DNA of 64,000 nucleotides from an uncultured delta proteobacterium (GCA_963735595.1 CAVTLK010000001.1:384001-448000), one strand, 5' to 3'; shown: positions 3,559-22,513, counted from the first letter of the stretch. The notes: a model not told the origin generated them from the letters alone. Numbers and translations: made by a program.

Positions 3559-3813
3559 TTACCCTCCGGTTACCATGGGATATATTTCCACTACATCGCC
3601 GTCTTTGAGCGGATAGGGTATAATCAGTAACGATTCTACAGGCTGTTTGTTGACGAGCACCAATCCCACTTCCCCGCGATCGATAGGAAGCCCAAAGAGC
3701 ACATCCCGAATATCGGCGGCTTGAAACGACAGGGTGTGTCTTCCTTTCATGTATCGTCGAAAGGAACCGTACAGGTTCACCTTAACTCTCGGGGATGATG
3801 CGTCAGTTGTCAT
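3559..3813 (-). CDS. MoaD/ThiS-family sulfur carrier
   Basis: 84 aa beta-grasp protein ending LKDGDVVEIYPMVTGG; directly abuts the AOR start. Confidence 0.9.
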   Translation of the reverse strand: MTTDASSPRVKVNLYGSFRRYMKGRHTLSFQAADIRDVLFGLPIDRGEVGLVLVNKQPVESLLIIPYPLKDGDVVEIYPMVTGG

Positions 3814-3863
3814 ATATCCTTTTTCTGTTATTCTGCCGATCGATACGATAGCAACGACGTTTC

Positions 3864-5105
3864 TCAGTGTTGGGCCCTGAGGCTCTCGATGAACGCCTCG
3901 ACCCTCGTCCTGGTCTGCGCCTCGGAGAAGGACCGCTCATCGGTCATGTCGGCTTCGATAATTATCGTCGGTATATCGAGGTCCTTCTGGATTATACGCG
4001 CTATATCCAGCTGGCCCAGCGAATAGGGCTTACATGAACGGTTCGAATGCATAACAAATCCGTCGGCGGAGTATCGCTTTATGAGCGCTTTTATCTCCGA
4101 GACCATCTGCTCGATGTCGATATTAAGGTATACCTCGGTATAGGATCGAGACATCGTCTCGATTAGGTTATCCGGGTCAAGGCAGGCCCTGGCCCACGCG
4201 TTAGTATACGTATCTGCGACCAAACACGCCCCGTTAACAGCGAACAGCTCCGATAGGGGCCGGAGCGCGAACCAGACCGGAATATTGTCCCAGAGGAGGC
4301 GGTATTTCTCGTTATCGACGGCCGCGATCCCGTCGGTAATCCGCTTCCTGAGCTCGGCAAGTAGCCCTACGTAGAAATCGTTACACTGGGTTGTGCCCCG
4401 CAGCGTGACGATGGGTGCGATAAAGAAGAAGGCATCAAAACAGCTCATGGGAGACGGCCGATTCTCGCACGTCGAGAGGACTTCGTTCCAGAGACCGACT
4501 CCCTCAACGGAGAGACGGCCCACCTCTTTGAGGCGGTCGCGGTCCATCTTCTTGCCGCACTGTTCCTCCAAAAAACGGATATACTCCTCCATCTGGCTCG
4601 TCACGTAGCGATGTGCCGATTCGGTCTTATGCTGGTGGATGAAGGGAGTGTCGATAAGAAACATCGGAACATCAAAGTGCCGGGCCAGGATCTCGTACCA
4701 CTTGGTGACGGTTCCGCAGATGTTGTTGCACGCTATCACGAAGTCGGGCTTCGGAAGGCCGCCGGGAATCGGGCTCTTCTTAGTGACGGCGCTCCCGATA
4801 TCTCCCCGAAAGTATGAACACAGGTCGCGGGAATATCCCATATCTTCCGAAATCCCGCACATCTCCACGCTCATCTTCGACGCCCCCAGCATCGCCCCGT
4901 GGTTCTCCGGATAGATTGGAATGATATCCATGGCGTGCAACGGCTCCACCGGCCCCCCGGAGGTGATCCACGCAATCTTCTTATTCCCGCTTGCCTCGGC
5001 GACCTTGGATTCGGTATAATACGCCGTCATCAGGTCCCGCATCGTCCGGGCCGATTGAAATTTCTTTTTTTCTTTTTCCGGGTCTTTTATTTTTTCATCT
5101 GCCAC
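3864..5105 (-). CDS. 2-hydroxyacyl-CoA dehydratase / benzoyl-CoA reductase subunit (HgdA/BzdO-like)
   Basis: YPENHGA, SRDLCSY, CNNICGTVTKW, HSNRSCKPYSLGQ, EADMTDER, TRVEAFIE. Confidence 0.88.
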   Translation of the reverse strand: MADEKIKDPEKEKKKFQSARTMRDLMTAYYTESKVAEASGNKKIAWITSGGPVEPLHAMDIIPIYPENHGAMLGASKMSVEMCGISEDMGYSRDLCSYFRGDIGSAVTKKSPIPGGLPKPDFVIACNNICGTVTKWYEILARHFDVPMFLIDTPFIHQHKTESAHRYVTSQMEEYIRFLEEQCGKKMDRDRLKEVGRLSVEGVGLWNEVLSTCENRPSPMSCFDAFFFIAPIVTLRGTTQCNDFYVGLLAELRKRITDGIAAVDNEKYRLLWDNIPVWFALRPLSELFAVNGACLVADTYTNAWARACLDPDNLIETMSRSYTEVYLNIDIEQMVSEIKALIKRYSADGFVMHSNRSCKPYSLGQLDIARIIQKDLDIPTIIIEADMTDERSFSEAQTRTRVEAFIESLRAQH

Positions 5106-6250
5106 GGCCGTCTCCTATCATCTCCATGAATGCATCGATACGTGTTTTTATCTGACCAAGTGAGGGATTGTCCATCTCCGTTTCGAGGAGCATATGGGGG
5201 ACCTTGAGCGAATCCACCGACTCCTTCAGGTAAGGGTAGTCAAAGGAATGGGGATCGCAGAATTTTATCATCAGGAATATAACCCCCTGCGCTCCACTGT
5301 CCTGCACCATCTTTTTGAGATAGGCTCCCCGATCGAACTGCGGATTATGTTTGGCCGCACAGATCGGCCGCCGTATGATTCGATCGGCGAGCGCTTCAAT
5401 CGGCTTTGTGCCCTTTTCATCCGCGTTAACGACAAAATAGCGTGAGCCGGTACACATATCGTCCCCGACGACGGTTCCTCCGGCCGATTCGATATAGTCA
5501 TATATTTCGTTAAAGACGCAGAGGTTGCCGGCGAGGAAAATCCTTGTCGGATGCCCTCCTCCCGCCGTATTATCGAGATCCGTCAGCAACGATTCCATGA
5601 GGAGGTTATGCTCCTCAACCGGCATAAACATAGCGGCCTGTACGCAGTCGTTGAGGGCTGAGGATGGCAGTATTGCGGGATTTTCCTTCTTGGCCTCGTA
5701 GAGCCGCGCGAGATTTCCCCTCATGCGGTTATAGAGTTTGATCGCCTCGACGAGCGAGTCGTCACCGATCGTTCGTCCGGTGAATGCCTCGATCTTCTTG
5801 ACAAATGACCCAAGCTCTTCAATCAGATAGGTTCGTGCGCTCTCGGTCTGGAGTTTAACGGGTAGGACGATGTCGGCGTGAAACGAATAGCCTGTATTGA
5901 TTCTCCAGATATCCGAAAGCCGCTGAATAGAATCACAGGTATGCGGGAAAACCGCCCCCTCCAGGAAATCGAGCTGGTTGGTCAGGGCCATGTCAAGGCC
6001 CGTTCTAACGAGTGAACATGAGTAGCTCTGGAGGTGAGAATCGGAACATACGACGCTCTTTTTGCTGACCTATGATGCGAAAGGGAATCCCCCCCCCCGC
6101 GTGGATGATCTCTTCGGGTGTGTAGGTGCAGAAATATCCGAATACCGGGCGCTTGTAGCGATCCTTGTATTTCCTCGCGGCACCGACGGGATCTTCTACG
6201 GTATTCTTCATGATAGCAAGCACTTCATCACGTGTCATCCGGTACCTCAT
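5095..6250 (-). CDS. 2-hydroxyacyl-CoA dehydratase / benzoyl-CoA reductase subunit (HgdB/BzdN-like); one frameshift near 6060
   Basis: GYFCTYTPEEIIHA (6005-6250) continues, after removing one A from the A5 run at 6059-6063, into SHLQSYSCSLV, PHTCDSIQRL, DDMCTGSRY, KFCDPH, TRIDAFME. Confidence 0.85.
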
Positions 6251-6253
6251 TTA

Positions 6254-7232
6254 TTAGGCATGCATAAGATATCTATTAATCGGGAGCGTTTTCAGTCTCA
6301 GGTTCCCGGACTCGTCGGGACCGACCTGGAAATGGCTCCCTCCCGTCTTTTTCGAGAGGATCCGGAGGATTTCCGGCGATTCCTTTTTACCTATGTAGAT
6401 TGAGTGAACCGCGATCCCGTCGGCATGAGCAAGCCTTATTTCCCGCGAGATTTCCCGGTCTCCCTCCGTCGGTCTTCCGTCGGTAATGAACACGACGTGT
6501 TTTATCCGGTCATAAACCGCCCTGAACTCCTTTATTGCGTCAAGGAGCGGTAGCTGGTAATTTGTAAAACCGCTGCATCGACATCGGGAAGCCATATCGC
6601 CGATCATCGCATAAGAACGATTGAAGAAGACTCTGCTTTTTAAAAACTTGGTTGACTGGTGGTTGAATTCAAGATACCCGATACGCATACGCCTCTTGCG
6701 CGCTATCCTGATAAGCCCGAGAATGAGCATCGAAGACCACTGCGCCCGGCTTCCGGTCATGGAGGAACTGATATCCCTGATTATGGCCAGCGCGCCTCCC
6801 TTGAGCTTACGCTTTCGCAGCATCGCCAACGGCATTTTTGGGTTGAGGTGGGCCAGCCATACCGCCGAATCGACCGGGTCCACGTCGTCAAACAGGGAAA
6901 AGTCCTCAAGATGCGACCAACTCCGTGGGGATCCGCCGTAATCCTTCATCAGGTCTTCGGTTTTTTGGACTATATTTCCTTCGATGACCTTGAGAATCGG
7001 GTAAACATCGGTGAGAGATTCCTTATTTACCTCTTCCTCTCCCCGATCGACGACCTCTTCCCCGGTCTTTTCTCTGGTCGGCAGCAAGTCCTTAACAATG
7101 AACGACTTGTCCGGGAACTGGTCGAAATCCTTATCGGAGAGTTCCGTGGGCTCCGCCTGACCCTCGTTTATCTCCTGGGGCTGGGCGTCTTCTTCACGCT
7201 CCTGGAATTCGGGCGGATTTAGTTTTTTTTTT
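6254..7232 (-). CDS. vWA domain with acidic N-terminal linker (-1 frame continuation of the MoxR ATPase)
   Basis: MIDAS DISSSM, GFTNY, FITDG. Frame is open from 7252 with no ATG/GTG before the ORF-track TTG at 7087. Confidence 0.8.
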
Positions 7233-8163
7233 CGACGAGGTCCACGAGCATTTCATCGAGCCGCTGGGCGACTTCCGGCGGAACACGGAAGGTCATAAGA
7301 TATTTCATGACGGAGAGGTCCTTGGGTAGGACCTCGGTGCGACCCTCAAGGATCGCCTTTGCCTTGAGAATGCTGATCGCCTTAACCAGGAAGGTCCTGT
7401 CGGTTAATAGCGAGTTCGTTTCGTTGAGATGGAAGTTCGTTATCAAGTGTTCGAGAAGCGCGATAAGCTGCTGTTTGACCTTAGCTCCGACCTTTATATC
7501 GAGTAAATATCCTGCCGGACGCTGGAAAACGGCATCCTCAAATCCCTTTACCGTATCCTTATCAAAGACGTGCTCGGTATAGTAATCCATGACCGAGATC
7601 GCTTCTTCCCAGTTTCCCCGGTTGATAAGCCCGGACGACCTGAGCTGAATCGTGAACCGGTCAAGGTTCGCCAGGTCCAGCGGCTCGTTATAGTAGTCAT
7701 CCTGGGTCGGGTTGCTGGTGGCGATGGCCGTTAACAACGGGAGTTTTGTTCCCTTATATTCCCGTTCGTTGAGGAGCCGCAACATGATATTGAGGGCTTC
7801 ACCGGGCGCGCGGGTAATATCATCAAGGACTACCAGTTGCGCCGTAAGTATGCCGCCGGGGATGAGTTTCTGGCTGATGAGTTCACCTCCGCCGTTCCCC
7901 GACTGGGGTTCCCTGCAGATGATATAGTCACCGATCAGCTCTGAGAGTCTCGTATCCCGATGGAACTGATAGAAATAGAAATTGAGGTTTGCCGCCTTGG
8001 CGGTGAGCTCGGCCAACATCGTCTTCGCCGTTCCCGGGGCGCCCTCGATATAGACGTGCTCCCTGGCAATCAGCGCCAGCAAAAGCCCTTCCTTGATATC
8101 GTTATGGCCAATAACGTATCGGTCCAGAATTTCCTTGATCTTTACGGCCGTATTGAGCATCAC
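7219..8163 (-). CDS. MoxR/RavA-like AAA+ ATPase
   Basis: Walker A GAPGTAKT, Walker B LVVLDDI, TSNP, LDRF; ends EKKN* on an A10 run. Confidence 0.9.
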   Translation of the reverse strand: MMLNTAVKIKEILDRYVIGHNDIKEGLLLALIAREHVYIEGAPGTAKTMLAELTAKAANLNFYFYQFHRDTRLSELIGDYIICREPQSGNGGGELISQKLIPGGILTAQLVVLDDITRAPGEALNIMLRLLNEREYKGTKLPLLTAIATSNPTQDDYYNEPLDLANLDRFTIQLRSSGLINRGNWEEAISVMDYYTEHVFDKDTVKGFEDAVFQRPAGYLLDIKVGAKVKQQLIALLEHLITNFHLNETNSLLTDRTFLVKAISILKAKAILEGRTEVLPKDLSVMKYLMTFRVPPEVAQRLDEMLVDLVEKKN

Positions 8164-8227: not shown

Positions 8228-9325
8228 CTAAAGCTCCGAACAATCCATGTTGAAGGCCTCGGCCACGGCTCGATAGGTTACCTTCTTGTTGAGTATATTG
8301 ACGCCCTTCTTGAGGGCCGGGTCCTCACTGATCGCCCTGTCCAAACCCTTATCTGCGAGGGCAAGGGCATACGACAACGTTGAATTGGTCAACGCAAAGG
8401 TCGAGGTCCGCGGCACCGCCCCCGGCATATTCGCCACCGCGTAGTGAACAACGCCGTCGACTATGTACGTAGGATCTTTATGCGTGGTGGGCTTGGTGGT
8501 TTCGGCGCATCCGCCCTGATCCACCGAGATATCGACGATGGCCGATCCCTTCTTCATCCTCTTGACCAGGTCTCTCGTTATGAGCTTTGACGCCTTCGCG
8601 CCGGGTATGAGTATCGTCCCTACCACAAGATCGGAAGATATGACTTCTTCCTCGATATTGGCCCTGTTGGACATGACCGTTACCACATGCCCGCCCATGA
8701 CGTCATGGATATATCTGAGCTTTGCCGGATTGATATCGAGGATACTTACCCTGGCCCCCATCCCCACCGCCACGAAACAGGCGTTGGAGCCGGCAATCCC
8801 CGCTCCGAGAATCGTAACTTTTGCCGGCGGTACCCCGGAAACCCCTGAAAGGAGGATCCCTTTGCCTCCGCCGATCGACTCCAGGCAGCGCGCCCCCATC
8901 TGTATGGAGAGCCTCCCGGCAACTTCGCTCATCGGGGCCAAGAGCGGCAGCGACCCATCCGGCAGCTGGATCGTCTCATACGCGATCGCCTTGACGTTTG
9001 TGGCGAGCAGTTTCTTGGTCAGATCTATGTCAGCCGCCAGGTGAAGGTACGTAAATAGTATGTGGTCTTTTATCAGGCCGAACTCGGGACCGAGCGGCTC
9101 CTTGACCTTGATGATCATCTCCGCCTGATCCCAGACGTCTTCCTTAGTGGGAAGGATCGTGGCGCCCATCGATGTGTATTCCTCATCCGACAGACCGCTA
9201 CCGATACCGGCCCCCCTTTCCACCAACACCGAATGACCGTGTCCTACCAGCGCCGATACTCCCGCCGGCGTGAGGGCAACGCGGTTCTCTTCGGCCTTGA
9301 TTTCTTTTGGAACCCCTATTTTCAT
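8228..9325 (-). CDS. ald: Alanine dehydrogenase
   Basis: MKIGVPKEIK..ENRV, KVKEP, FTYLHLAA, PMSEVAGR, VDQGGCAET, VANMPGAVPRTST. Confidence 0.96.
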   Translation of the reverse strand: MKIGVPKEIKAEENRVALTPAGVSALVGHGHSVLVERGAGIGSGLSDEEYTSMGATILPTKEDVWDQAEMIIKVKEPLGPEFGLIKDHILFTYLHLAADIDLTKKLLATNVKAIAYETIQLPDGSLPLLAPMSEVAGRLSIQMGARCLESIGGGKGILLSGVSGVPPAKVTILGAGIAGSNACFVAVGMGARVSILDINPAKLRYIHDVMGGHVVTVMSNRANIEEEVISSDLVVGTILIPGAKASKLITRDLVKRMKKGSAIVDISVDQGGCAETTKPTTHKDPTYIVDGVVHYAVANMPGAVPRTSTFALTNSTLSYALALADKGLDRAISEDPALKKGVNILNKKVTYRAVAEAFNMDCSEL

Positions 9326-9373
9326 GGTTTTAACCTCTCTTGAAGTACTTGTTTTATATCCTGGGTATATCGC

Positions 9374-10723
9374 TTAGTCGGTTACACCCGGCCTCCGGCG
9401 GCGCGGTACGCGTGCTGCCATTCTTTTTTCGTAGGCCGACCGCAGCCGAGGGGGTACAAGAAACGTATATATCAGACAAAACACAAAGACCCCCGCCATT
9501 ATATAGAGGACGGTAATGTCCTCTACGTATATCCCCGCCAGCAGGACCAGGAAAAAGACCACGGAGATAATGGGGATAACAAGACCGCCCGGAACCCGAT
9601 AGGACCTTGTGGCCCCGCGCATCGTGAATCGGAGCCGGATAACCGAGAGGGCCATCACTGTATAGATGATCACCTCGATGGCGGCGGCCACCAGGATCAG
9701 GCGCATATATTTCCCGGTAAGGTGGCAATAGATAGATATTAAGAACGCCAGTGTAAACGCAAAAAGGATGGCGAACCACGGTGTCGCGTAGCGGTCACTG
9801 ATCCGTGAGAATATCCTCGGCAATACATTATCCCGACCCATGGCGTATATGAACCGCGAAAAATTCAAAAAACCCGCATTGTAGGAGGTCAGCGACGCAA
9901 GGCAGCTCATGAAGACAAACGAGTAGATACCGACCTTCCCGAACAATGCGTTACCGACAATAATATGGGGGATTTTTGACACCGCGAGCGTTTCCTTGGG
10001 CACTACCGCGGTCATTCCCGTAATAAAGATCACGTACGAAAGACAGAGAAGCCCGATTGCGATCATCATTCCCTTCGGAATCATGCTGCTTTCAGTGACC
10101 TCTTCGGCCAGCGGCGTTACCCACTCGAATCCGACGTAAAGAAAGACGCCGACGGCCGCCGCCTGGAAAACGTTCGTAACTCCCCCCGTGTTAAACAGCT
10201 CCGGGGCTGAGACGCCTGATGTCGAAATAGCATATATACCGACGACTATCATAAAGGTGAGCATAGTGTATGTCATGATGTCTTCAGCCAGACCGGCGAG
10301 AACGACTCCCCTCAAATTTAGCAGTGCAATGAGTCCAAGGAAAACCACGACCCACGTAAAGGGAGGAATACCGGGGAGTACCGTGGCGATGACGCCGCTG
10401 AGGATATGCGTTTCCGGGCCGACCATAGCGATGGCGCAGCCCAGGTAAAAGGCCCCGATGGCAATAGCGGCCTTTTCCCCGAAGGCCCGCTCAATAAAAA
10501 GTCGAATCCCCGCCGCCGACGGGTACATCCCGTTGAGCTCCGAAAAGCACATGGAAGCCAGGATGCACATAATACCCGCGACAAGTATCGATATCCAGGC
10601 CGACTGGCCGGCGACGAGTATCGCGACCTTTACTCCGGCAGCGTAACACGAAGTCGCCATCGCCATGCCGGCGCTCGTGGCGATCACCGTCCTGAGCGTT
10701 ACGACCTTCTTCAGACCGGTCAT
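9374..10723 (-). CDS. APC-family amino acid/amine permease
   Basis: About 12 hydrophobic segments; ELNGMYPSAAG, YVGFEWV, SRFIYAMGRD. Confidence 0.9.
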   Translation of the reverse strand: MTGLKKVVTLRTVIATSAGMAMATSCYAAGVKVAILVAGQSAWISILVAGIMCILASMCFSELNGMYPSAAGIRLFIERAFGEKAAIAIGAFYLGCAIAMVGPETHILSGVIATVLPGIPPFTWVVVFLGLIALLNLRGVVLAGLAEDIMTYTMLTFMIVVGIYAISTSGVSAPELFNTGGVTNVFQAAAVGVFLYVGFEWVTPLAEEVTESSMIPKGMMIAIGLLCLSYVIFITGMTAVVPKETLAVSKIPHIIVGNALFGKVGIYSFVFMSCLASLTSYNAGFLNFSRFIYAMGRDNVLPRIFSRISDRYATPWFAILFAFTLAFLISIYCHLTGKYMRLILVAAAIEVIIYTVMALSVIRLRFTMRGATRSYRVPGGLVIPIISVVFFLVLLAGIYVEDITVLYIMAGVFVFCLIYTFLVPPRLRSAYEKRMAARVPRRRRPGVTD

Positions 10724-10773
10724 ATCCCTTACCTCGCACTGGAATCCTTTCTCACAGACAGATATCTGATCTC

Positions 10774-10816
10774 ACGGAACGCGCCCATCCACGCGGCGTG
10801 GGTGTGCGCGTTCCGT
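10774..10816. other. Long intergenic stem-loop without U-tract
   Basis: ACGGAACGCGC...CCACG-CGG-CGTGG...GCGCGTTCCGT between two co-oriented genes. Confidence 0.55.
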
Positions 10817-10843
10817 TCCGCAGTAGTTTCAGGGCCGTCTAGC

Positions 10844-11621
10844 CTACGTCTCCTTAATCCAGGCGTCTATTGTGAGCATGAACTTACCAAGGTCCTTGCC
10901 GTATTCAGGAGAGCCTTCCTGCGCCAGGTATCCCAGGACGATAGCCTGGACGAGGTCAACCTGGTTGGTAAGGACCTTTATCGCGTTGTCGACTCCCATG
11001 AATTGCATGTCGATAAACGGGCGCCGTCGCGTATAGAGTCCCCTGCCCGCCTTTGTCTTCCCGAACTTGATCCGAAGATAGGCGTACGGGCCGTCCGGCA
11101 GGCACGTCCACTGGATGACCCTGTCGGGCATCTTTTTGGTGAATTCGTTAAACTCCTCGTAACCCGCCTTGTTCATCTGGGACAGCCCGGAGCTGAGCAT
11201 ATAGAAGAGGAGCTTTACCTTGAGGGCCTTCTTCTCCGGGTCCTTCGGGAGCTTCGTCGGCAGCAGCAACGTCAGACCCAGCAGTAGCGGGCACGACCTT
11301 CAGCAATAGGCCGATTTTCGTCAGCCCCTTGATTTTAGGGACGGCCGCTTTACCCGCGAAGAAGGCATTGAGCTGCCTGGCGCTCTTGAAGATGAAGGCG
11401 AGATCAGGATTCTCGGCACGCTCGAAAGACGTTTTGGGAATTCCATCTTCGAATTTCAACTGAGTGACGAGATCGTCGTTTCCTTTCACCTCGAACTGGA
11501 CAATCTTATTGAAACCACGGTACTTTTCGCGCGTCTTCGGGTCGTCTTCGATCAAGACTTTAACGAGCGGCACCGCGGCCCGAAGCATGATCCTTGCCAG
11601 GATATAGTCTTTGTCGGGCAT
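10844..11621 (-). CDS. Tandem SCP2-like (sterol/lipid carrier fold) protein; one frameshift near 11290
   Basis: ORFs 11148-11621 and 10844-11269 join at GTGCCCGCTACTG. Each half has an SCP2-like pattern (VQFEV..PDLAFIF..NAFFAGK; IQW..PFIDMQF..VLTNQVDLVQAI..GYL..EGS). Fold assigned by eye. Confidence 0.55.
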
Positions 11622-11636
11622 AATGCCTCCTTTTGT

Positions 11637-12656
11637 TTATAGCTCGTCCTGCCAGTCTTCGTCTTCCTCGAATTCCTTCCCCATGACTTCCCGCACCGTT
11701 TCGATGATGCCGTCTGAATCAAGCTTGTAGTGGTGGTACAGGTCCTCGGGATATCCGACCGGCGAGAACTCGTCGGGTACCCCTACACGCTTAAAGGCGC
11801 ACCCCTTTCCAAGGTCCGCGATGACCTCGGCCACCGCGCTGCCGAGCCCCCCGACGATGCTGTGATCCTCGAACGTGATGATCCGTCTGGTATCCATGAC
11901 CGCCTTTTCGATCGCTTCCCGGTCAATCGGCTTGATCGTGTGCATGTTGAGCACCCGCACCGAAAGACCGTCGTTCTTCTTGAGAAAGTCGGCGGCATCG
12001 ACGGCCGCCACCAGCGGCGTGCCGCACGCGATTACGGTAACGTCCGTGCCGGGCCGCATCTCGTGCGCCTTTCCGATAGTGAAATCGAACTTGTCGTCCT
12101 TATAGACCCGGGGCTCAAAGCCGCGGCCTATCCGAATATATACCGGGCCCTTCCAATCGACGCACGCAGTAACCGCCTTGGCGGTTTCGAAACCGTCGGC
12201 CGGGGCGATAACGGTCATGTTGGCAAACGACCGGAGAATCGCCAGGTCCTCGGTACAGTGATGCGTTGTGCCGGCCTGTCCGAACGAAATACCTGAGTGG
12301 GTTGCGATTATCTTGCAGTTCAGCTTCTGGTAGCAGATATCGGTCCGCACCTGTTCACCGGCCCGCATCGCCACGAAAACCGCAAACGTAGAGATGAAGG
12401 GCATAAATCCCGCGAGCGCCAGGCCCGCCCCGATCCCGAACATATCCTGCTCGGCAATTCCAACGTTGAAAAACCGGTCCGGGTATTTTTCTCCGAATCT
12501 TCCAATTTTAGTGGACTTCGCGAGATCCGCGCTCAGCGCAACGATTTCGGGACGCTGGTCACCGAGCTGGGTCAACACATCGCCGTAGATCTCGGCTGCC
12601 GTCATCTTATCGGCATCATAGACCGTATATGTCAAGCCTCCAACTTGCTCTGCCAT
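11637..12656 (-). CDS. Transketolase C-terminal (pyrimidine-binding) subunit
   Basis: SADLAKST, FFNVGIAEQ, GTTHHCTED, GPVYIRIGR, HTIKPID, EDHSIVGGLGSAV. Confidence 0.93.
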   Translation of the reverse strand: MAEQVGGLTYTVYDADKMTAAEIYGDVLTQLGDQRPEIVALSADLAKSTKIGRFGEKYPDRFFNVGIAEQDMFGIGAGLALAGFMPFISTFAVFVAMRAGEQVRTDICYQKLNCKIIATHSGISFGQAGTTHHCTEDLAILRSFANMTVIAPADGFETAKAVTACVDWKGPVYIRIGRGFEPRVYKDDKFDFTIGKAHEMRPGTDVTVIACGTPLVAAVDAADFLKKNDGLSVRVLNMHTIKPIDREAIEKAVMDTRRIITFEDHSIVGGLGSAVAEVIADLGKGCAFKRVGVPDEFSPVGYPEDLYHHYKLDSDGIIETVREVMGKEFEEDEDWQDEL

Positions 12657-12666
12657 GGCTTACCTC

Positions 12667-13509
12667 CTACTTTTTGGCGTACATCTTATCGATGGACTCA
12701 AGTGCCTTTTTCGTCTTGTCCGCGTCAAGCCCGCCGTAGTGCCAGCCGGCGACATCTTCCATGAAGTCGACCCCTTTGCCCTTGACGGTATGCGCAATGA
12801 TGACACACGGGCCTTTCTTATAGGCTATTGCCTCATCAATTGCCCCGCATAGCTTTACAAAGTCGTGGCCGTCCACATCGATGACCTTCCAACCAAACGC
12901 CTCCCACTTCTTTGCCAGCGGCTCGATGCCCATGACATCCTGGCACGCACCGTCGATACAGAACTTATTGTTATCGACGAATCCGACGAGATTCGAGAGT
13001 TTGAAATGGCTGGCGCACATCGCGGCTTCCCAAATCGTTCCCTCATGCTGTTCGCCGTCTCCCATGATGCAGTAGGTTAGCCAGTCTTTCTTCTTGAGCC
13101 TGGCCCCGAGGGCAAGCCCAACCGCGATCGGCAATCCGTGACCGAGCGAACCTGTGGAGGCGTCCACCCCCTTTACTTTCAGGCTGTCCAGGTGCATGCC
13201 GAAGGGAGAGCCGGTGTGGTTGAAATCCTTAAGGAGCTCCTTATCGAAATACCCCTTGTCGGCCAGAACCGGGGCATACCCGATCCCGCCGTGCCCTTTT
13301 GAGAGCACGACCCGATCTCGATCCGCCATGTCGGGGCGCTTCGGGTCGATGTTGAGGTATTTGTAATAGAGACTCACCAGAATTTCTACCTGGGACAGGG
13401 CTCCTCCGGCATGCCCGCCGCCGGACCAGATCAGCGTCTGGATTATGTCCTTTCTGATCTGCCAGGCCTTTTCCGTTAGTTTCTTCAATTCGGTGTCGGA
13501 AAGTGCCAT
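12667..13509 (-). CDS. Transketolase N-terminal (ThDP-binding) subunit
   Basis: GHAGGALS, DRVVLSKGH, STGSLGHG, GDGEQHEG..WEA, DGHD, TVKGKG. Confidence 0.93.
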   Translation of the reverse strand: MALSDTELKKLTEKAWQIRKDIIQTLIWSGGGHAGGALSQVEILVSLYYKYLNIDPKRPDMADRDRVVLSKGHGGIGYAPVLADKGYFDKELLKDFNHTGSPFGMHLDSLKVKGVDASTGSLGHGLPIAVGLALGARLKKKDWLTYCIMGDGEQHEGTIWEAAMCASHFKLSNLVGFVDNNKFCIDGACQDVMGIEPLAKKWEAFGWKVIDVDGHDFVKLCGAIDEAIAYKKGPCVIIAHTVKGKGVDFMEDVAGWHYGGLDADKTKKALESIDKMYAKK

Positions 13510-13671
13510 AATGCTACCTCCAAGAATTGTTAGTACTCTGGATTACTCGTGCTATATCTCTTTTGCGGTTCGGCTTGCCGGCCTCCCGATCGGACACCGC
13601 CGATCCAATCACGGCATACGCCCAAACAAAATCCGGGAACAATAACCGCCGGTTCATACCCGTTCGTACCC

Positions 13672-15081
13672 TCAATCGCCCTCCGGCGCCACCCCTCCTT
13701 CTCTTCTGCGACGTCTGGGCACCCGTTCGTCCGCTATCTTCTTGTATCTCGCTCGAAGCCGCGGCCATACCGTGAAGACGTAAAGCGAGTTGAGCACAAA
13801 CAGGCCGACGATGAAGAAGAGGCAAATACGCTGGTCCATCACATCCTCGGGTTTTACCGGCCCAAAGAGAATAAAGCCCGCCACAACGCTGTAGATTACG
13901 ATAACGATGATCGGTACCGCGATGCCTCCTTTTAATTTAAAACTTCTCTCCTTGTCCGGCTCCTTGTAGCGAAGGCGGATAACACACAGGGCCATCACCA
14001 CGTAGATCAGGCATTCGGTCGCGGCAATTATGAGAATCAGCGAGAGGACGAAATTAGTCATGAATCCGTATACCGTAACCGCGACGCAGTAGGCGAGGAT
14101 GACAATCATGGCGACCCAGGGGGTCGCATATTTCGGGTGGAGCTTGGCAAGAAAGCGGGGTAAAGACCAGTCACGCGCCATGGCATAGATAAATCGCGAC
14201 GAGGTCATGATGCCGGCATTGAGAGACGTCGTAGAGGCCAACAGCCCCATGATAATCATGAAGTAAAGCCCGAAATTACCTAACAGGAATTTGCCGTAGA
14301 ATACATGGGGAGCCGGGATACCATCGGGCGCGAGGACCGGGTTAAGCACCTCCCAGCCGAGGACGGACGTCATGGCGGTTGAAAAGATAGCGTAGGTAAT
14401 CCCCAGGAGGCCGAGGGCAATCATCATCCCCTTCGGAACCAGCTTTACGTCCGTCACCTCTTCCGATACGGTGATGACCCACTCGAAGGCAATGTAGGTT
14501 GATATACCGATAGCTACCGCCTGTATAAATCCGTCGAACGATCCGATGGCAAAGGGGTTGGTGATATGGAAATCGATCGTATAAAAGCCGTAGAGGGAAA
14601 CGAGGATAAGGCCGACAAACATAGTGTAGGAGAGGATATCCTGGGCCATTCCTGCTATCGTAATCCCCCTGAAGTTGAGATAGAGGAGGATCAGTATACA
14701 CGCCCCCGCCCATATAAACGGCGGGACTCCCGATACTCCCATGGATACGGCCTGGGAGAGTATATAGATCTCTGCGCCGACGATGGCAAGCTGTCCGAGG
14801 ACATACACTCCCGAAATAATAATGGCCGTTCGCTCGCCAAAGGCGCGCTCAATAAAGAGCTTGATACCCGCCGCCGTCGGGTACATTGAATTCAGCTCAC
14901 AAAAACACGACCCTGCCAAAACCGCCATGATACCGGACGTCAAGATTGCAATCCAGGCGGAATTACCCGTCAGATAGCTCGCCAGCTGAATAAACGAGAT
15001 ATATGTAACCGATGCCAGGGCCATTCCGGCCCCCGTGGAGATTACCGTTCGAAGTCCGATCGCGCGTCTGAGCTGGGTCAT
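13672..15081 (-). CDS. APC-family amino acid/amine permease (paralogue of 9374-10723)
   Basis: Start placed at ATG 15081 behind AGGAGGT; ELNSMYPTAAGIKLFIERAFG, SRFIYAMARD. Confidence 0.9.
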   Translation of the reverse strand: MTQLRRAIGLRTVISTGAGMALASVTYISFIQLASYLTGNSAWIAILTSGIMAVLAGSCFCELNSMYPTAAGIKLFIERAFGERTAIIISGVYVLGQLAIVGAEIYILSQAVSMGVSGVPPFIWAGACILILLYLNFRGITIAGMAQDILSYTMFVGLILVSLYGFYTIDFHITNPFAIGSFDGFIQAVAIGISTYIAFEWVITVSEEVTDVKLVPKGMMIALGLLGITYAIFSTAMTSVLGWEVLNPVLAPDGIPAPHVFYGKFLLGNFGLYFMIIMGLLASTTSLNAGIMTSSRFIYAMARDWSLPRFLAKLHPKYATPWVAMIVILAYCVAVTVYGFMTNFVLSLILIIAATECLIYVVMALCVIRLRYKEPDKERSFKLKGGIAVPIIVIVIYSVVAGFILFGPVKPEDVMDQRICLFFIVGLFVLNSLYVFTVWPRLRARYKKIADERVPRRRRREGGVAPEGD

Positions 15082-15150
15082 GAATCGTACCTCCTGCGTT
15101 TTCTGATCACGGTGATAAATATCATTGAAGATACGTATCACACGGCTATT

Positions 15151-16506
15151 CTATGTAGCTTTTCCGGACCTTCTCCGGCGTTTCCCTGCACCCGGTACAT
15201 CGTCTCCCGGCACACTGCCGGGACCATTGTTTTCCTCCTGTTTTGTGATTTCCGCGAGCGACCGGTCGAACGCCTCCAGCACAAAATCGACCTCCTGCTC
15301 GGTAATCACAAGGGTCGGCATAATACGAATGATCCGCGGATTATTGAAGGTATAGATCGATATAACGCCGTTTTGTTTGAGCTGGTAGGCCATACGGGGG
15401 CCGATACTGTCCTCGGGAAACTCCATGCCGAGCATCAATCCCCTGCCCCGGACGTCCAGCACGAGGCTCGGGTACTTATCCTTCAGCGTGGAGAGGCCCT
15501 TTTTGAACCGATCTCCCATGCGGGCCGCGTGTCCCGGCAGGTCGTTCTTCTCAATATACTCAATCGTCGCCAATGCCACGAGGCATGCCAGCGACGTCCC
15601 TCCGAAGGAATTGATGATAATGAAGGGGTGCGTCATGAGAAATTCAGCGATTTCCTCGGTAAAAACCGCACACGACAGGGGATACAATCCGCCCGATAGC
15701 GATTTTGCCAGGACCATAATGTCGGGCGCAACCCCCGAGTATTCGGCGCAAAACATCTTACCGGTGCGGCCGAATCCGGTCTGGACCTCGTCAAAGACCA
15801 GGAGAATCTCATTTTCCGTACAGAGCTCTCTCAATTGACGCAGATACCGATCGTCGGCGGGAATGATACCCCCCTCCCCCTGGATGGGCTCCAGCAGCAC
15901 CGCCGCCGTTTCTTCGGTAATCGCCTCTTCTACCGCCCCGATATCGTTGTATCGGACGTGCCGGTAACCGGGCGTCAGCGGGGCAAAGGGCTTTTTATAC
16001 ACGTCCCGTCCGGTGGCCGGAAGGGCAAAACCGGTAACCCCGTGGTAACCGTTTTCCATGCAGATGATCTCGGTCTTATCGGTATGTCCGCGCGCGAGCT
16101 TTACGGCCACCTCAATGGCCTCTCCGCCGCCGCAGCAAAACAGCGAGTATTTCAGATCCCCGGGAGTGATCTGGGCGAGCTTTTTTGCCAGAAGCCCCCG
16201 TTCCCTCACGATCGATATCCAGCCGCCCATGTCGTAGGTATCCAGCGCCTTCTTGAGGCCTTCAACGATCTCCGTATTATGCCTGCCGACGTTGAATATC
16301 CCCGCCCCGGTGACGCAATCGATATATTTTTGCCCCGAGATATCCCAGACCGACGCGCCCTCCCGCCTCCCCTCAATAATGTCGAGGCTGGCATTTTTAA
16401 ACATCCGCAGCGCGAAGGGATTTACGTACTGCCGGTAGTTCTCCTCGGTCTCCTTTCTGATTTCATCCACGTTAGTCTGAGAGAGGATGTCGTCGATTAT
16501 TGACAT
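15151..16506 (-). CDS. Class III PLP aminotransferase (putrescine/ornithine aminotransferase-like)
   Basis: YHGVT, EPIQGEGG, FDEVQTGFGRTG, AKSLSGG (PLP lysine). Start likely ATG 16506; extreme C-terminus may be frameshifted. Confidence 0.9.
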   Translation of the reverse strand: MSIIDDILSQTNVDEIRKETEENYRQYVNPFALRMFKNASLDIIEGRREGASVWDISGQKYIDCVTGAGIFNVGRHNTEIVEGLKKALDTYDMGGWISIVRERGLLAKKLAQITPGDLKYSLFCCGGGEAIEVAVKLARGHTDKTEIICMENGYHGVTGFALPATGRDVYKKPFAPLTPGYRHVRYNDIGAVEEAITEETAAVLLEPIQGEGGIIPADDRYLRQLRELCTENEILLVFDEVQTGFGRTGKMFCAEYSGVAPDIMVLAKSLSGGLYPLSCAVFTEEIAEFLMTHPFIIINSFGGTSLACLVALATIEYIEKNDLPGHAARMGDRFKKGLSTLKDKYPSLVLDVRGRGLMLGMEFPEDSIGPRMAYQLKQNGVISIYTFNNPRIIRIMPTLVITEQEVDFVLEAFDRSLAEITKQEENNGPGSVPGDDVPGAGKRRRRSGKAT

Positions 16507-16507
16507 A

Positions 16508-16867
16508 TCAGACCTCGGGCCAGATAACGGCCGATATGACGTCGATGCGCATGACATCCTCCTGGGTCCCCTTGACCTTGATCTCGCCCCTCAGGTACTT
16601 CTGGGTGGGATTTATATCTCCCCAGAACATGTCGCACATCGTTTCGCTGTCCGTCTCCACGATGATATCGGGCGTTCCGTCCGACCCCTTGTCGTTCTTC
16701 ACGATCTCACCTTCTACCACCTTCATGGTAAAGGAATCACCCGTGTCGACGGCCTTGAAATGGAGCAGCTTAGTCCAGTCTCGCTGCATTTTGCGCAGGC
16801 GCTTATTGGTGTTGCACTGCTCCGTGAAATCGGCCAAGGCTTCCCATATCTCGTCAGCGGTCGCCAT
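16508..16867 (-). CDS. SCP2 sterol/lipid-binding domain protein
   Basis: 119 aa; PDIIVETDSETMCDMFWGDINPTQKYLRGEIKVKG is the SCP2 C-terminal pattern. Confidence 0.85.
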   Translation of the reverse strand: MATADEIWEALADFTEQCNTNKRLRKMQRDWTKLLHFKAVDTGDSFTMKVVEGEIVKNDKGSDGTPDIIVETDSETMCDMFWGDINPTQKYLRGEIKVKGTQEDVMRIDVISAVIWPEV

Positions 16868-16885
16868 ACAAGAACCTCCTGTCTA

Positions 16886-18165
16886 TTAGTACTTTTCTAT
16901 TCCGCCCTGTTTCATTATCTCGACCATCGATTTATCGAGGGCATCTAAGACAAAGTCAACCTCCTCGGGCGTGATCACCAGCGACGGCATTATCCTCATC
17001 ACCGAGGGCTCGTTGCCGGTATAGATAGCCATAACACCATGCTGCGCCAGCTGGTAGCTCATCCGCGGACCGATGCTGTCGTTGGTGTACTGTAATCCCA
17101 TCATAAGGCCTTTACGCCTCACCTCCGTGAGAAGCTCGGGGTATTTCTTGATCAGCTCATCGAAACCTTTTTGGAAGCGCTCTCCCATCTTTGCCGCATG
17201 CTCGGGGAGCTTGTTTTTTATGAGATAGTCAATAACCGCCAGCCCGACTATACAGCCGATATCCGATCCGCCGAAGGTAGACAGATGGGTAAAGGCGTGC
17301 GTCATGACGAAATCGCCCAACTCCTCCCGGTAGATTGTCGCAGAGATCGGATAGAGCGCCCCCCCAGTGATTTGGCGACGGTAATGATATCCGGAACGAC
17401 GCCGGAATGCTCGCAGCAAAACATCTTTCCCGTCCGCCCGAATCCGGTTTGAATCTCGTCGAAGATAAGCATCACATCATGGTCGTCGCAGAGCTTTCTC
17501 ATGCCTTTTACGTAATCGTCTGTTGCAAGGTGAATACCCCCCTCCCCCTGCACAAGCTCGATGATAATCGCCGCCGTATCCTCGGTGATCGCCTCTTCCA
17601 GCGCCGAGAGGTTATTATACGGGACATGTTTATACCCCGGCACCATCGGGCCGAAGGGCTTCCGGTATTCATCCCGGCCGATCGCCGCCAGTGAAAATCC
17701 CGTATGTCCGTGGTAGGCCTTGATCGTCGAGATTATCTCGTTTTTCATGGTATAGCCGCGGGCGAGTTTTATGGCAAAATCATTGGCCTCCCCGCCGCCC
17801 GACCCGTACATGACATACTGGAGGTCGCCGGGCGTGATCTCGGCGAGACGCTTGGCCAGGTCGGCCTTGGGCTTGCTGCAGAGCAGAAAGACGCCGAGAT
17901 CATAGTCGTCCAGCGCCTTTTTCAGGGCATCGATAATCTCGGGGTTTCTCCTGCCGACGTTAAATGATCCCGCGGACGTGATGCAATCGATGTACTTCTT
18001 CCCGGTAATGTCCCAGACGGCCGCTCCCTCGCGCTTCCCCTCTATGATATCCAACCCGGCGTTTTTCAATACCCGTGCCTTCTGCGGATTGACGTATCGC
18101 GAGAAGTCAGCCAGCGCTTGTTTCTTTATTTCCTCCAGCTTTTCCTTGGAATCCTTACCGCCCAT
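16886..18165 (-). CDS. Class III PLP aminotransferase, second paralogue; one frameshift in the G7 run near 17360
   Basis: YHGHT, ELVQGEGG, FDEIQTGFGRTG, AKSLGG, then ALYPISA and STFGG in the adjacent frame. Confidence 0.88.
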
Positions 18166-18296
18166 GTTTTTCTCCGTACTAGATCCTTTCAAAATAGTGT
18201 GCTATATGTCTATGAAAATATCTATTTATCACGAGACCGGCACGTATCTATTGCATCAACCTCGCTCTTTCGCTCAATATCTCGCGCCAAAACGCC

Positions 18297-18956
18297 CTAT
18301 TTCGGTGATCGTGCCATGACTCCTCTCAGCAGTATTTCCAGCTGAGAGGCAACCAGCGCTTCCAGGTTCAGATTAAAGCCCTTCAGATACCCCATGAGAT
18401 CAAGGATGAGTATCCCCTCTAATCCCGCCCAGAGATTAAAGCTGGCCTCTATGCTGTTAAGGTCGGATGAAAAATCTCCGGCGGACATCCCATCTGCCAC
18501 AACGCCTTCGATGATAGTAACGGCCTGGGTCGTTAAATCTCTGAGCCGTTCTCTGAGATGCTCCGATTGACCCCGCTTGGTGAAACCAAGATCATGAAAA
18601 GTGAGCATCTCGAAATATTCGGTGTAGTCGGTATAGAAGGTAACGTACTGGCGGGCGACGGCCCGTATGCGGTCTTGCGGCGTGCCGTCTATCAGGGCTG
18701 CCTTTTTAATGAGGCCGATAACTACCATGAAGGCCTCTTCGCAGACTTTCTCGTAGATCTCGTCTTTTCCGGAGAAATAGACGTAGATCGCCCCGGTGGA
18801 AAGCTCCGCGCCAAGGGCTACATCCCGCATCGTGGCGCCGAGGTAGCCCTTTTCGAGAAATAGTTTGCGCGCGGAATTCAGGATGCGCTCTACACGCTCC
18901 TGCTTTTCGACCTCAATCCGTTGAGCGATGACGCTTTCCATATGCAGGACACTCAA
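18297..18956 (-). CDS. TetR/AcrR-family transcriptional regulator
   Basis: ILNSARKLFLEKGY..ATMRDVA..AELSTGAIYVYFSGKDEI. Confidence 0.93.
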   Translation of the reverse strand: MSVLHMESVIAQRIEVEKQERVERILNSARKLFLEKGYLGATMRDVALGAELSTGAIYVYFSGKDEIYEKVCEEAFMVVIGLIKKAALIDGTPQDRIRAVARQYVTFYTDYTEYFEMLTFHDLGFTKRGQSEHLRERLRDLTTQAVTIIEGVVADGMSAGDFSSDLNSIEASFNLWAGLEGILILDLMGYLKGFNLNLEALVASQLEILLRGVMARSPK

Positions 18957-21073: not shown

Positions 21074-21403
21074 CTAGTTGGACGATTTGCGCCGCTTAAG
21101 AACCGCGCCTACCCCCCAGCCTAACCCGAAGAGCACGAGCGTTCCGACGAGACTTGCCGCCATGCCGGAGATCGGCCTCTCTCCCAGTAAGGGAATCGTA
21201 TAATCGGGCATGAGCGAATGTCCCCAGGCAAGAACTTCACCGAGGTGCAGAAAACCGAGCTTTTCCGCAGCCTTCTCCAGCCCGTCGGGGCTCGATGAAG
21301 CAAAGGGCGACAGAAAAAACGCGATCACCAGGCAAATGCCAAGGGCAACGACAATAAACCCCGTATTATTTTTCTTAACCCCCGTAGCGTTCTTTTTACC
21401 CAT
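21074..21403 (-). CDS. PDGLE-domain Ni/Co ECF accessory protein (CbiN/NikN-like)
   Basis: SPFASSSPDGLEK..MPDY, two transmembrane segments; start overlaps the cbiM stop. Confidence 0.88.
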   Translation of the reverse strand: MGKKNATGVKKNNTGFIVVALGICLVIAFFLSPFASSSPDGLEKAAEKLGFLHLGEVLAWGHSLMPDYTIPLLGERPISGMAASLVGTLVLFGLGWGVGAVLKRRKSSN

Positions 21404-22079
21404 TTTCCGCGACCTCCCCTCCGATGAGCCCGGTCTTTCCCCCAGACCACGCATATACCAGATCCGGCCTGGCGTTGAGCATGTACGAGAGAACGGCCGT
21501 TGTCACCACCGCATCCCCCAGCCCGATGAGGACGTGAAACACCGTCATAACCGGAATCACCACCGCAAAGGGGATTGTCCCCGATACGCCGAGCTCTATG
21601 CTGCACACAAACGCGGCCAGGACCACGGCCAGCCATGAAACGCCGAAGGTCACCGCCAAGAATGAGCCTTTCGTTTTGGGAAGAACCTTGACGATCAAGG
21701 CGAAGATCGCGTAGGGAATTATCCCTCCAATGATCCCCATGTTCAGGACGTTGGCCCCGAGGGCGGTAATCCCGCCGTCGGCAAACAGGAGACACTGCAT
21801 AGCCAGCACCAGCGTCATAATCCAGAATCCCACCGACGGTCCCAACAACAGGCAGGCCAGCATCGCCCCCAGGAAATGGCCGCTCGTTCCCCCGCCAATC
21901 GGAAAATTGATCATCTGTGCGGCGAAGATGAAGGCGGCCGATATCCCCGCCAGGGGGACAAACCGGTCAGCGAATCGACGCTTGGCCTGCACGATCGTCG
22001 CGGCGCCGACCGCGGCAGACACCCCATATGTCGCCGCCGCAACCGGCAGAGAAAGAAATCCATCAGGTATGTGCATCAT
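21396..22079 (-). CDS. cbiM: Ni/Co ECF S-component CbiM/NikM
   Basis: Diagnostic MHIPDGFL N-terminus; FAAQMINFP.GGTSGH, FADGGITALGAN. Confidence 0.93.
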   Translation of the reverse strand: MMHIPDGFLSLPVAAATYGVSAAVGAATIVQAKRRFADRFVPLAGISAAFIFAAQMINFPIGGGTSGHFLGAMLACLLLGPSVGFWIMTLVLAMQCLLFADGGITALGANVLNMGIIGGIIPYAIFALIVKVLPKTKGSFLAVTFGVSWLAVVLAAFVCSIELGVSGTIPFAVVIPVMTVFHVLIGLGDAVVTTAVLSYMLNARPDLVYAWSGGKTGLIGGEVAENG

Positions 22080-22087
22080 TGCCCTCC

Positions 22088-22513
22088 TTAAGGTAAATCT
22101 TTTCCGGTAGTGGTCAGTATCATTTTGCCGTGCCTGACGCCGCGCGTACTGATAAGTTTATTACCAAGATCGAGGATGGACCCGGCCGGGCCCCTGAGGA
22201 CGAGAATTTCGAGGCAGTTATGCCGGTCGAGATGGATATGCAGGGCCGAGTGGACTACCCCGTGCCGTTCGTGCTGTAGTTCCGTAAGCTTCGAAGGTAA
22301 ATCCGACTCGTGATGGTCATACACGATGGACACGACGGCCATCCGCTCTTCATCCCGGTCGGGCGCCTCCCATTCCTGGCCGACCAGGGTATCCCTTATC
22401 AGGTCACGGATTGCCTCCGACCGGTTTTCATACCCTTTCCCGGAAAGATAGGTGTCGAACAGCTCGAGGAGCTGCCGGTCAAGCGAAACACCGAAACGAA
22501 TCAGATCGCTCAT
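22088..22513 (-). CDS. nikR: Nickel-responsive regulator NikR
   Basis: RFGVSL..NRSEAIRDLIR (ribbon-helix-helix); YDHH, QH, HIHLD..NCLE. Confidence 0.95.
   Translation of the reverse strand: MSDLIRFGVSLDRQLLELFDTYLSGKGYENRSEAIRDLIRDTLVGQEWEAPDRDEERMAVVSIVYDHHESDLPSKLTELQHERHGVVHSALHIHLDRHNCLEILVLRGPAGSILDLGNKLISTRGVRHGKMILTTTGKDLP

Follow-up and report, generated by a model that had tools for sequence, protein, structure and literature searches.

A ten-gene row with paired aminotransferases, SCP2-fold proteins and a divergent split transketolase in an uncultured delta proteobacterium, and its possible role in breaking down lipophilic amino-alcohols

We analysed a 64,000-nucleotide stretch of DNA from an uncultured delta proteobacterium (GCA_963735595.1, CAVTLK010000001.1:384001-448000; referred to as the window), in which a row of ten genes encodes two class III aminotransferases (AT1 and AT2), two SCP2-fold proteins, two permeases, a regulator, an alanine dehydrogenase and a split transketolase. 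At a probability of roughly 0.45, the row would carry out the oxygen-independent deamination of a lipophilic amino-alcohol followed by cleavage of the resulting ketol, the chemical steps being inferred. Gene content, folds, residues and gene linkage are established by sequence and predicted models. A sphingoid base, of the 2-amino-1,3-diol type, is the leading candidate for the substrate, but that specific identity is a narrower and doubtful proposal. According to this scheme, the permeases would take up the amine, and AT1 and AT2, together with the small SCP2 protein, would move its amino group onto pyruvate, with recycling by alanine dehydrogenase. The tandem SCP2 protein would then present the hydroxymethyl ketol to the split transketolase, giving an aldehyde and a two-carbon unit in the manner of DesAB acting on cortisol. 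The aldehyde would be oxidised by an aldehyde oxidoreductase, for example that encoded at 1624-3558.

Open reading frames (ORFs; n = 22) of the window between 1624 and 21001 were scanned for families. All ten genes are encoded on the minus strand and follow the order tetR, AT1, SCP2, AT2, APC permease, transketolase N subunit, transketolase C subunit, tandem SCP2, APC permease and ald, with intergenic gaps of 1–162 bases; the 162-base gap is the boundary between an aminotransferase module and a transketolase module. A previous sequence-only reading had claimed this co-oriented run, in this order and without a sugar kinase or isomerase. The ORF and family scans bore out the run, and no sugar kinase or isomerase was matched among the 22 ORFs. 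The same gene order was found at five loci (L081, L082, L089, L090 and L135), all belonging to the host family, and two more loci of that family (L136 and L137) keep the order, with V4R genes inserted between the modules and tetR missing. Its recurrence in relatives makes the row more than a chance association.

The split transketolase had its best solved match in 6YAK from Carboxydothermus hydrogenoformans. Its residues are given in what we take to be the E. coli transketolase numbering, positioned via the structure-match alignments of the N and C subunits. The thiamin diphosphate (ThDP) motif and the catalytic histidines (equivalents of His26, 66, 100 and 261) are kept in the N subunit. For the family, loci were sought with the C subunit, and the best 80 of the 592 found were compared; some close orthologues, found later, are not among these 80. 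Equivalents of His26, 66, 100 and 261, Asp155 and Asn185 were present in 72–73 of 73 members, and those of Glu411, His461 and His473 in all 80. The Asp469 equivalent, on the other hand, is Ala in 80/80 members, against Asp in 5/5 control split transketolases. Among the phosphate-site residues, Ser385, His461 and Arg520 are kept in the window enzyme but Arg358 is not, being replaced by Ala and lost in 62 of the 80 members. Asp469 binds the 2-hydroxyl of the aldehyde and selects the stereoisomer (PMC11387542), and is a site of engineering for a wider substrate range (PMC7661550, PMC5073344). Judged by these residues, the enzyme is probably not the usual sugar-phosphate transketolase, and the kept His100 and His473 equivalents fit a hydroxymethyl-ketone donor. 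The altered sugar-binding sites agree with the earlier view that a divergent transketolase would be needed. A quick tree placed the window enzyme as sister to two FumI-linked copies (Shimodaira–Hasegawa-like approximate likelihood ratio test, SH-aLRT, 92), and no annotated relative closer than 47% identity came from plasmid searches. The genome also has a paralogous split transketolase (locus L133, G000:C5:35400-42800) beside a zinc dehydrogenase, a glycyl radical enzyme without an assigned family and a second zinc dehydrogenase; it is 56% identical, has Gly at the Asp469 site and has no adjoining SCP2 gene.

The tandem SCP2-fold protein is a near-fixed partner of the split transketolase, occurring in 77 of the 80 loci. 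Modelled from the intact L089 copy, it contains two repeats (predicted local distance difference test score, pLDDT, 95.6; best Z 11.2, root-mean-square deviation (rmsd) 3.0 over 112 residues). In a fold search, the predicted model of the single SCP2 protein matched solved SCP2 proteins with Z 12.0 and rmsd 2.5 over 99 residues, and its mean column identity was 85% in an alignment of 16 sequences. The predicted models thus agree with the SCP2 identity claimed earlier for both carrier-like proteins. SCP2 folds bind sterols and acyl chains, according to the titles of the solved structures matched, and the single protein is likely a lipid carrier or a subunit of the aminotransferases.

AT1 and AT2 are 55–58% identical to each other and about 40% identical to YgjG, their nearest solved relative, which is followed by PigE or an acetylornithine enzyme; the intact AT1 orthologue from L089 also matched YgjG best (E 8e-86). 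The pyridoxal phosphate (PLP) lysine and the equivalents of Glu243, Phe327 and Arg426 are kept in both, and the Glu/Arg switch in AT2. At three YgjG positions AT2 differs, with Phe91 replaced by Ala, Gln119 by Trp and Lys183 by Val. When 29 AT2 and 20 AT1 orthologues, plus L107, were aligned, the Phe91 site was Ala in 50/50 and the Gln119 site Trp or Phe. Of the putrescine pocket (Phe91, Gln119, Phe327, Leu419), only Phe327 is kept in the 49 AT1/AT2 orthologues, the Leu419 site being Phe or Gly; the carboxylate site (YgjG 183) is Val in AT2 and His in AT1, with no Arg. The roles of Phe91, of Gln119, which holds the far amine of putrescine, and of the 183 site as the position of a carboxylate Arg are those described for YgjG in PMC4244111. 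With such pockets, putrescine and ornithine are disfavoured as substrates, and an amine of more hydrophobic or branched character, not further specified, is favoured; a preference for polyamines or ornithine, which the sequence-only reading had named as fatal to it, is opposite to what the missing binding residues suggest. A YgjG-related domain belongs to a pathway making long-chain amines (PMC9594044).

Membership of known aminotransferase groups was also considered. Both aminotransferases fall well short of the PatA cut-offs: AT2 scored 398 bits against the PatA cut-off of 612 (NF008570), and 331 against 659 (TIGR03372), and, the putrescine pocket not being kept either, assignment to PatA was rejected. 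An ornithine, acetylornithine or gamma-aminobutyrate aminotransferase was rejected for want of the carboxylate-binding Arg. FumI had been cited as precedent. The class III family was confirmed, but AT1 and AT2 are PatA/YgjG-like, and FumI cannot therefore serve as a direct precedent for them. They are about 21–26% identical to the FumI-like group, and the FumI structure (6HBS) is not among the 60 best AT2 matches, so that membership of the FumI clade was likewise rejected. Plasmid searches gave no close annotated AT2 relative, the best being YgjG at 40%.

An ordinary putrescine or ornithine operon, including a housekeeping transketolase, appears very improbable. Many AT2 homologues are named 'putrescine aminotransferase' by the Joint Genome Institute (JGI), and this 93%-complete genome has no canonical transketolase, only the window enzyme, the altered split paralogue and a DXS-like gene; some housekeeping use of the window enzyme may therefore exist, which also counts against our proposal. 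Such an operon, however, fits poorly with the AT2 score of 398 bits where 612 is needed and with the missing Gln119, Phe91 and carboxylate-binding Arg. It would leave unexplained the SCP2 partners, and the loss of Asp469 in every family member speaks against it, as do four family genomes that hold a separate full-length transketolase-sized match besides the window-type enzyme.

Outside the host family, the row splits into module A (aminotransferase, SCP2, aminotransferase, APC permease) and module B (split transketolase and tandem SCP2). The 80 transketolase loci contain the N subunit in 76 cases, a FumI-like aminotransferase in 43, a zinc dehydrogenase in 10 and an alanine dehydrogenase in 2. 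A search with AT2 found 36 loci, of which six distant ones (29–38% identity) were left out. The 30 close loci have the small SCP2 (24/30), an APC permease (26/30) and both paralogues (22/30), while a split transketolase occurs in 5/30, all five in the host family. Permease 1 accompanies AT2, and the permease 2 type accompanies versions of module A with a single aminotransferase. Such single versions (aminotransferase, SCP2, permease, sometimes tetR or ald) were seen in other families at L233-L237, with amidohydrolase or penicillin-amidase genes nearby in L233, L235 and L237. In some loci module A has amide hydrolases from several families on its flanks, which would be expected were the amine released from an N-acyl lipid. 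Conservation of all ten genes as a unit, on which the sequence-only reading had staked itself, failed outside the host family; conservation held for module A and module B separately. In the host family, the PatA-like pair would stand in place of the FumI-like enzyme of most other carriers.

A second thiamine enzyme links the modules further. This is an SCP2–E1α–E1β fusion of ~845 residues, located directly upstream of module A in L086 (5646-8186), L087 and L095 and, in broken form, in L101, making 4 of the 30 close AT2 loci; L166 and L181 show the same join. FumI-like enzymes adjoin the fusion as well, in 6 of 78 fusion loci (7 with L145) and in this genome. Here, a sister cluster (L132, G000:C5:474528-480336) encodes SCP2, E1-alpha, E1-beta, tandem SCP2 and a FumI-like aminotransferase; its SCP2–E1 gene is broken, and is one fused ORF in the relative L230. 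The fusion is widespread in Desulfobacterota, usually without an adjoining E2 gene (78 loci), and an E2 gene adjoins only six of its more distant relatives. Two aminotransferase groups without relation to each other thus combine with two thiamine enzymes that are likewise unrelated, and each has an SCP2 partner of its own. An alpha-hydroxyketone, which is what an amino-alcohol yields on deamination, can be cut by either type of thiamine enzyme. As far as gene context can tell, this two-by-two exchange is the best sign of a single amine-to-ketol-to-aldehyde chemistry acting on a lipophilic substrate. At L240, L241 and L229, other class III aminotransferase groups have as partner either a member of that zinc dehydrogenase family or the E1 fusion, and a 2-hydroxyacyl-CoA lyase-like gene stands beside the fusion in three loci (L146, L151 and L167).

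Co-occurrence was also examined by genome, as the sequence-only reading had suggested. An orthologue of the transketolase was present in 13/24 genomes with the aminotransferase pair. Outside the family the figure was 11/22, as against 9/391 non-family genomes of a phylum sample. In that sample, 4/13 genomes with the aminotransferase clade have the transketolase (Fisher p 9e-5). Since kin are not independent, these figures and the p value are overstated, and five near-complete genomes with module A alone run the other way.

The competing explanation that we take most seriously, while still doubting it, is that two modules under one regulator serve separate substrates. Module A, the second permease and alanine dehydrogenase would make aldehydes from terminal hydrophobic amines (alkyl, aryl-alkyl, long diamines or amide-derived) for the aldehyde oxidoreductase, and the transketolase would receive its ketol from a FumI-like enzyme or a zinc dehydrogenase encoded elsewhere. 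Much of what suits this explanation weighs against the proposed single route. None of the 80 transketolase loci outside the host family has window-type aminotransferases or an APC permease, and five genomes that are 97–100% complete carry aminotransferase, SCP2 and permease with no match to the transketolase, a close E1 fusion, a FumI-like enzyme or a zinc dehydrogenase. Two FumI-like enzymes occur elsewhere in 10/10 family genomes, and FumI-like enzymes are present in 7/9 transketolase genomes of the phylum sample; the transketolase may therefore be fed from another locus. In four non-family genomes with the pair, moreover, the transketolase is adjoined by its own FumI-like gene. The 162-base gap between the modules, with V4R genes there in L136 and L137, points in the same direction, as do the PatA-like nature of AT1 and AT2 and the hydrophobic residue at their distal-amine site. 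YgjG acts on terminal primary amines (PMC4244111). Against separate substrates stands the fact that at least two separate contexts, one with the split transketolase and one with the SCP2–E1 fusion, place module A next to a thiamine enzyme. No FumI-like match was found in 7 of 11 non-family genomes with the pair and the transketolase (mostly drafts of unknown completeness, one being 95% complete), or in four genomes with the pair and the E1 fusion. The change of Phe91 to Ala should also widen the pocket, beyond what a terminal amine requires.

Further points against the deamination–cleavage route concern its parts. An aldehyde dehydrogenase or oxidoreductase was near the transketolase in only 9/80 loci. 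The fold search with the single SCP2 protein also matched GNAT/Eis proteins, and the fold is therefore no proof of lipid binding. C18 bases are not the usual cargo of APC permeases, which mostly transport small polar amines. Stereochemistry is a further difficulty: by Cahn–Ingold–Prelog (CIP) reasoning, the ketol formed from a D-erythro base (2S,3R) would be 3R, whereas the usual donor is 3S. The 2S,3R assignment of D-erythro bases is given in PMC6148460. Such a ketol geometry would need a change in the enzyme, yet the His26 and His261 equivalents are unchanged; the caveat on C3 raised with the sequence-only reading stands.

In its widest form, the proposal would have anaerobes of at least six phyla degrade sphingoid bases without kinase or lyase by a modular, SCP2-assisted kit. 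A FumI- or PatA-like aminotransferase would make the ketol and a thiamine enzyme would cut it, the transketolase serving 1-hydroxy bases and the SCP2–E1 fusion 1-deoxy bases; the window would represent a PatA-like pair on the transketolase branch. We offer this generalisation tentatively, and consider it rather unlikely in full. The 2-hydroxyacyl-CoA dehydratase pair found downstream of the row would suit a 2-hydroxy acid derived from phytosphingosine; it is given little weight, because only three loci outside the family (L091, L152 and L233) have the pair near the modules.

The row could in principle run in the biosynthetic direction, a fatty aldehyde and a two-carbon unit being joined to a ketol and aminated, with alanine from alanine dehydrogenase, to a 2-amino-1,3-diol lipid. 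Each of the two reactions can run backwards. In the case of anisomycin, the core is assembled by a transketolase together with an aminotransferase (PMC11387542), and the family ranked second among the matches is that of PigE, which is biosynthetic for a lipophilic aldehyde. A regulator of TetR type and a pair of uptake permeases nevertheless suit catabolism; genes for aldehyde oxidation and amide hydrolysis are repeatedly found close by, and the loci compared showed no cluster of acyltransferases. The chance of this direction seems very slight.

The features of the row are listed in Table 1. Alanine dehydrogenase is predicted to regenerate pyruvate and free ammonia, and the TetR protein is likely the repressor of the row. 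A sigma-70-like site upstream of tetR (19021-18993) is weak, with 9/12 matches, the number of such sites not exceeding that of shuffled controls; promoter and terminator scans in general gave no count clearly above shuffles. The hairpin is strong, occurs once in this genome and lacks a T tail. Contigs from RNA runs at the row are short and ~87–100% identical, and cannot show expression or a single transcript.

Table 1. Positions of the genes of the row and of one hairpin, counted from the first letter of the window.
Feature	Position	Strand	Basis
TetR-family regulator	18297..18956	-	PF00440
AT1, class III aminotransferase, PatA/YgjG-like clade, broken frame	16886..18165	-	PF00202 on both pieces
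Single SCP2-fold protein, 119 aa	16508..16867	-	PF02036 and predicted model
AT2, class III aminotransferase, AT1 paralogue	15151..16506	-	Family scan
APC-family permease 1	13672..15081	-	PF13520
Split transketolase N subunit	12667..13509	-	PF00456
Split transketolase C subunit	11637..12656	-	Family scan
Tandem SCP2-fold protein (258 aa in relatives)	10844..11621	-	Predicted model and locus comparison
Hairpin between tandem SCP2 gene and permease 2	10774..10816	not assigned	21-nt arms, 90% complementary
APC-family permease 2	9374..10723	-	44% identity to permease 1
Alanine dehydrogenase	8228..9325	-	TIGR00518, 489 bits (cut-off 392)

Single-base slips split two genes of the row: in AT1 the frame breaks around 17360, within a run of G, and in the tandem SCP2 gene it breaks around 11290. 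The extra base of the latter, at 11288, was not present in contigs from two public runs, and is likely an assembly slip. The AT1 break is common to the close relative L081, with L082, L089 and L090 free of it, and is probably of the same kind; among the contig matches listed from the public runs, none spans it. A dehydratase subunit gene (5095-6250; one ORF in L089) and an ABC ATPase gene (23628-24591) are also split into two ORFs each, which suggests a noisy assembly.

Downstream of the row, 1624-8163 encodes moxR, vWA, two subunits of 2-hydroxyacyl-CoA dehydratase type, a MoaD-like protein and an aldehyde ferredoxin oxidoreductase. These genes may be transcribed on their own, to judge by a promoter-like site at 8220-8192, and could process the aldehyde product. 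Upstream of the cluster (21074-22513) are presumably a candidate NikR-like regulator and a CbiM/NikM-type metal uptake gene, names that we read off the sequence. Close relatives bear the titles Candidatus Zymogenaceae and Candidatus Zymogenus, and the host itself is an anaerobe that has not been cultured.

As a whole, the interpretation given with the sequence-only reading keeps the divergent transketolase and its ties to an SCP2-fold partner (77/80) and to FumI-like enzymes (43/80), and loses the conservation of the unit and the FumI precedent for AT1 and AT2. If the proposed route is true, it identifies enzymes by which a major class of eukaryotic and bacterial lipids is turned over in sediments and guts. 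It would also supply a naturally occurring transketolase that acts on long-chain aldehydes, something that enzyme engineering has aimed at through the same Asp469 site. Even if the modules act on separate substrates, two uncharacterised SCP2-assisted enzyme systems are defined that currently carry the wrong labels, putrescine aminotransferase and transketolase. The proposal can be tested in cultured carriers: Lutispora saccharofermentans and Oceanirhabdus seepicola have the transketolase module, and Desulfoluna species the E1 fusion.

The proposed route would combine known kinds of chemistry, a desmolase-like cleavage and a FumI-like deamination. DesAB of Clostridium scindens and Agathobaculum desmolans cuts a two-carbon unit from cortisol, a non-phosphorylated lipophilic ketol (PMC3735941, PMC12065433, PMC12876203, PMC5408610). 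Like the window enzyme, it is a split transketolase of anaerobes in which the Asp469 equivalent is absent. The Agathobaculum desmolans locus was located via a published desE primer (the desC primer sequence matched no genome), and DesB, encoded beside the characterised desE gene, is also without Asp469. Identity to the window transketolase is only 35.6% for DesA and 39.5% for DesB, lower than that of ordinary split transketolases (41–49%), and in a quick tree DesB fell outside its clade, on a long branch. Known DesA and DesB members are 75–82% identical to each other (PMC5408610). Membership of DesAB was therefore rejected, on the low identity, the position outside the clade and the lack of a desC/desE-type dehydrogenase in the row. 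By analogy, the window transketolase may still work like a desmolase. A ring-bearing lipid, rather than a sphingoid base, might then lose its polar side chain, the substrate being a steroid ketol or a hopanoid with an amino-polyol side chain. This is suggested by DesAB, itself a split transketolase with a lipophilic ketol as substrate (PMC3735941, PMC12065433), by the loss of Asp469 that the two enzymes have in common, by the zinc dehydrogenase that accompanies the transketolase in some loci (10/80), as DesC does DesAB, and by the binding of sterols as well as acyl chains in the SCP2 structure titles. The low identity and the desEAB locus, which unlike the row has no SCP2 protein or aminotransferase gene, make it unlikely.

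For the deamination step, FumI of Sphingopyxis sp. MTA144 (PDB 6HBS) uses pyruvate as best acceptor and converts a sphinganine-like 2-amino-3-ol to a 2-keto-3-hydroxy lipid (PMC3136697). Its close homologues (E 1e-96) are the usual partners of this transketolase (43/80 loci); its substrate lacks the C1 hydroxyl, unlike the 2-amino-1,3-diol proposed here. PatA/YgjG of E. coli (PDB 4UOX) and PigE (PDB 4PPM) are the nearest solved relatives of AT1 and AT2, and the window differs from them in having paired paralogues with an SCP2 gene between. The Carboxydothermus hydrogenoformans transketolase (6YAK/6YAJ) has the same two chains and catalytic histidines; it keeps Asp469 and Arg358. In the window enzyme both positions are Ala, and a tandem SCP2 protein is its fixed partner.

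For sphingolipids, the exit from the pool reviewed in PMC6148460 is phosphorylation followed by sphingosine-1-phosphate (S1P) lyase, which is closed to 1-deoxy bases; a bacterial S1P lyase is the subject of PMC5234717. A literature search, with subscription journals mostly outside its scope, gave no description of this gene combination or of an anaerobic non-lyase route. The best PF00282 match of the genome resembles aromatic amino-acid decarboxylases. The kinase/lyase route yields the same kind of products as the one proposed here, a fatty aldehyde and a two-carbon unit (PMC6148460). In contrast to it, the row has neither kinase nor lyase, and the proposed route would be ATP-free, with ammonia released via alanine.

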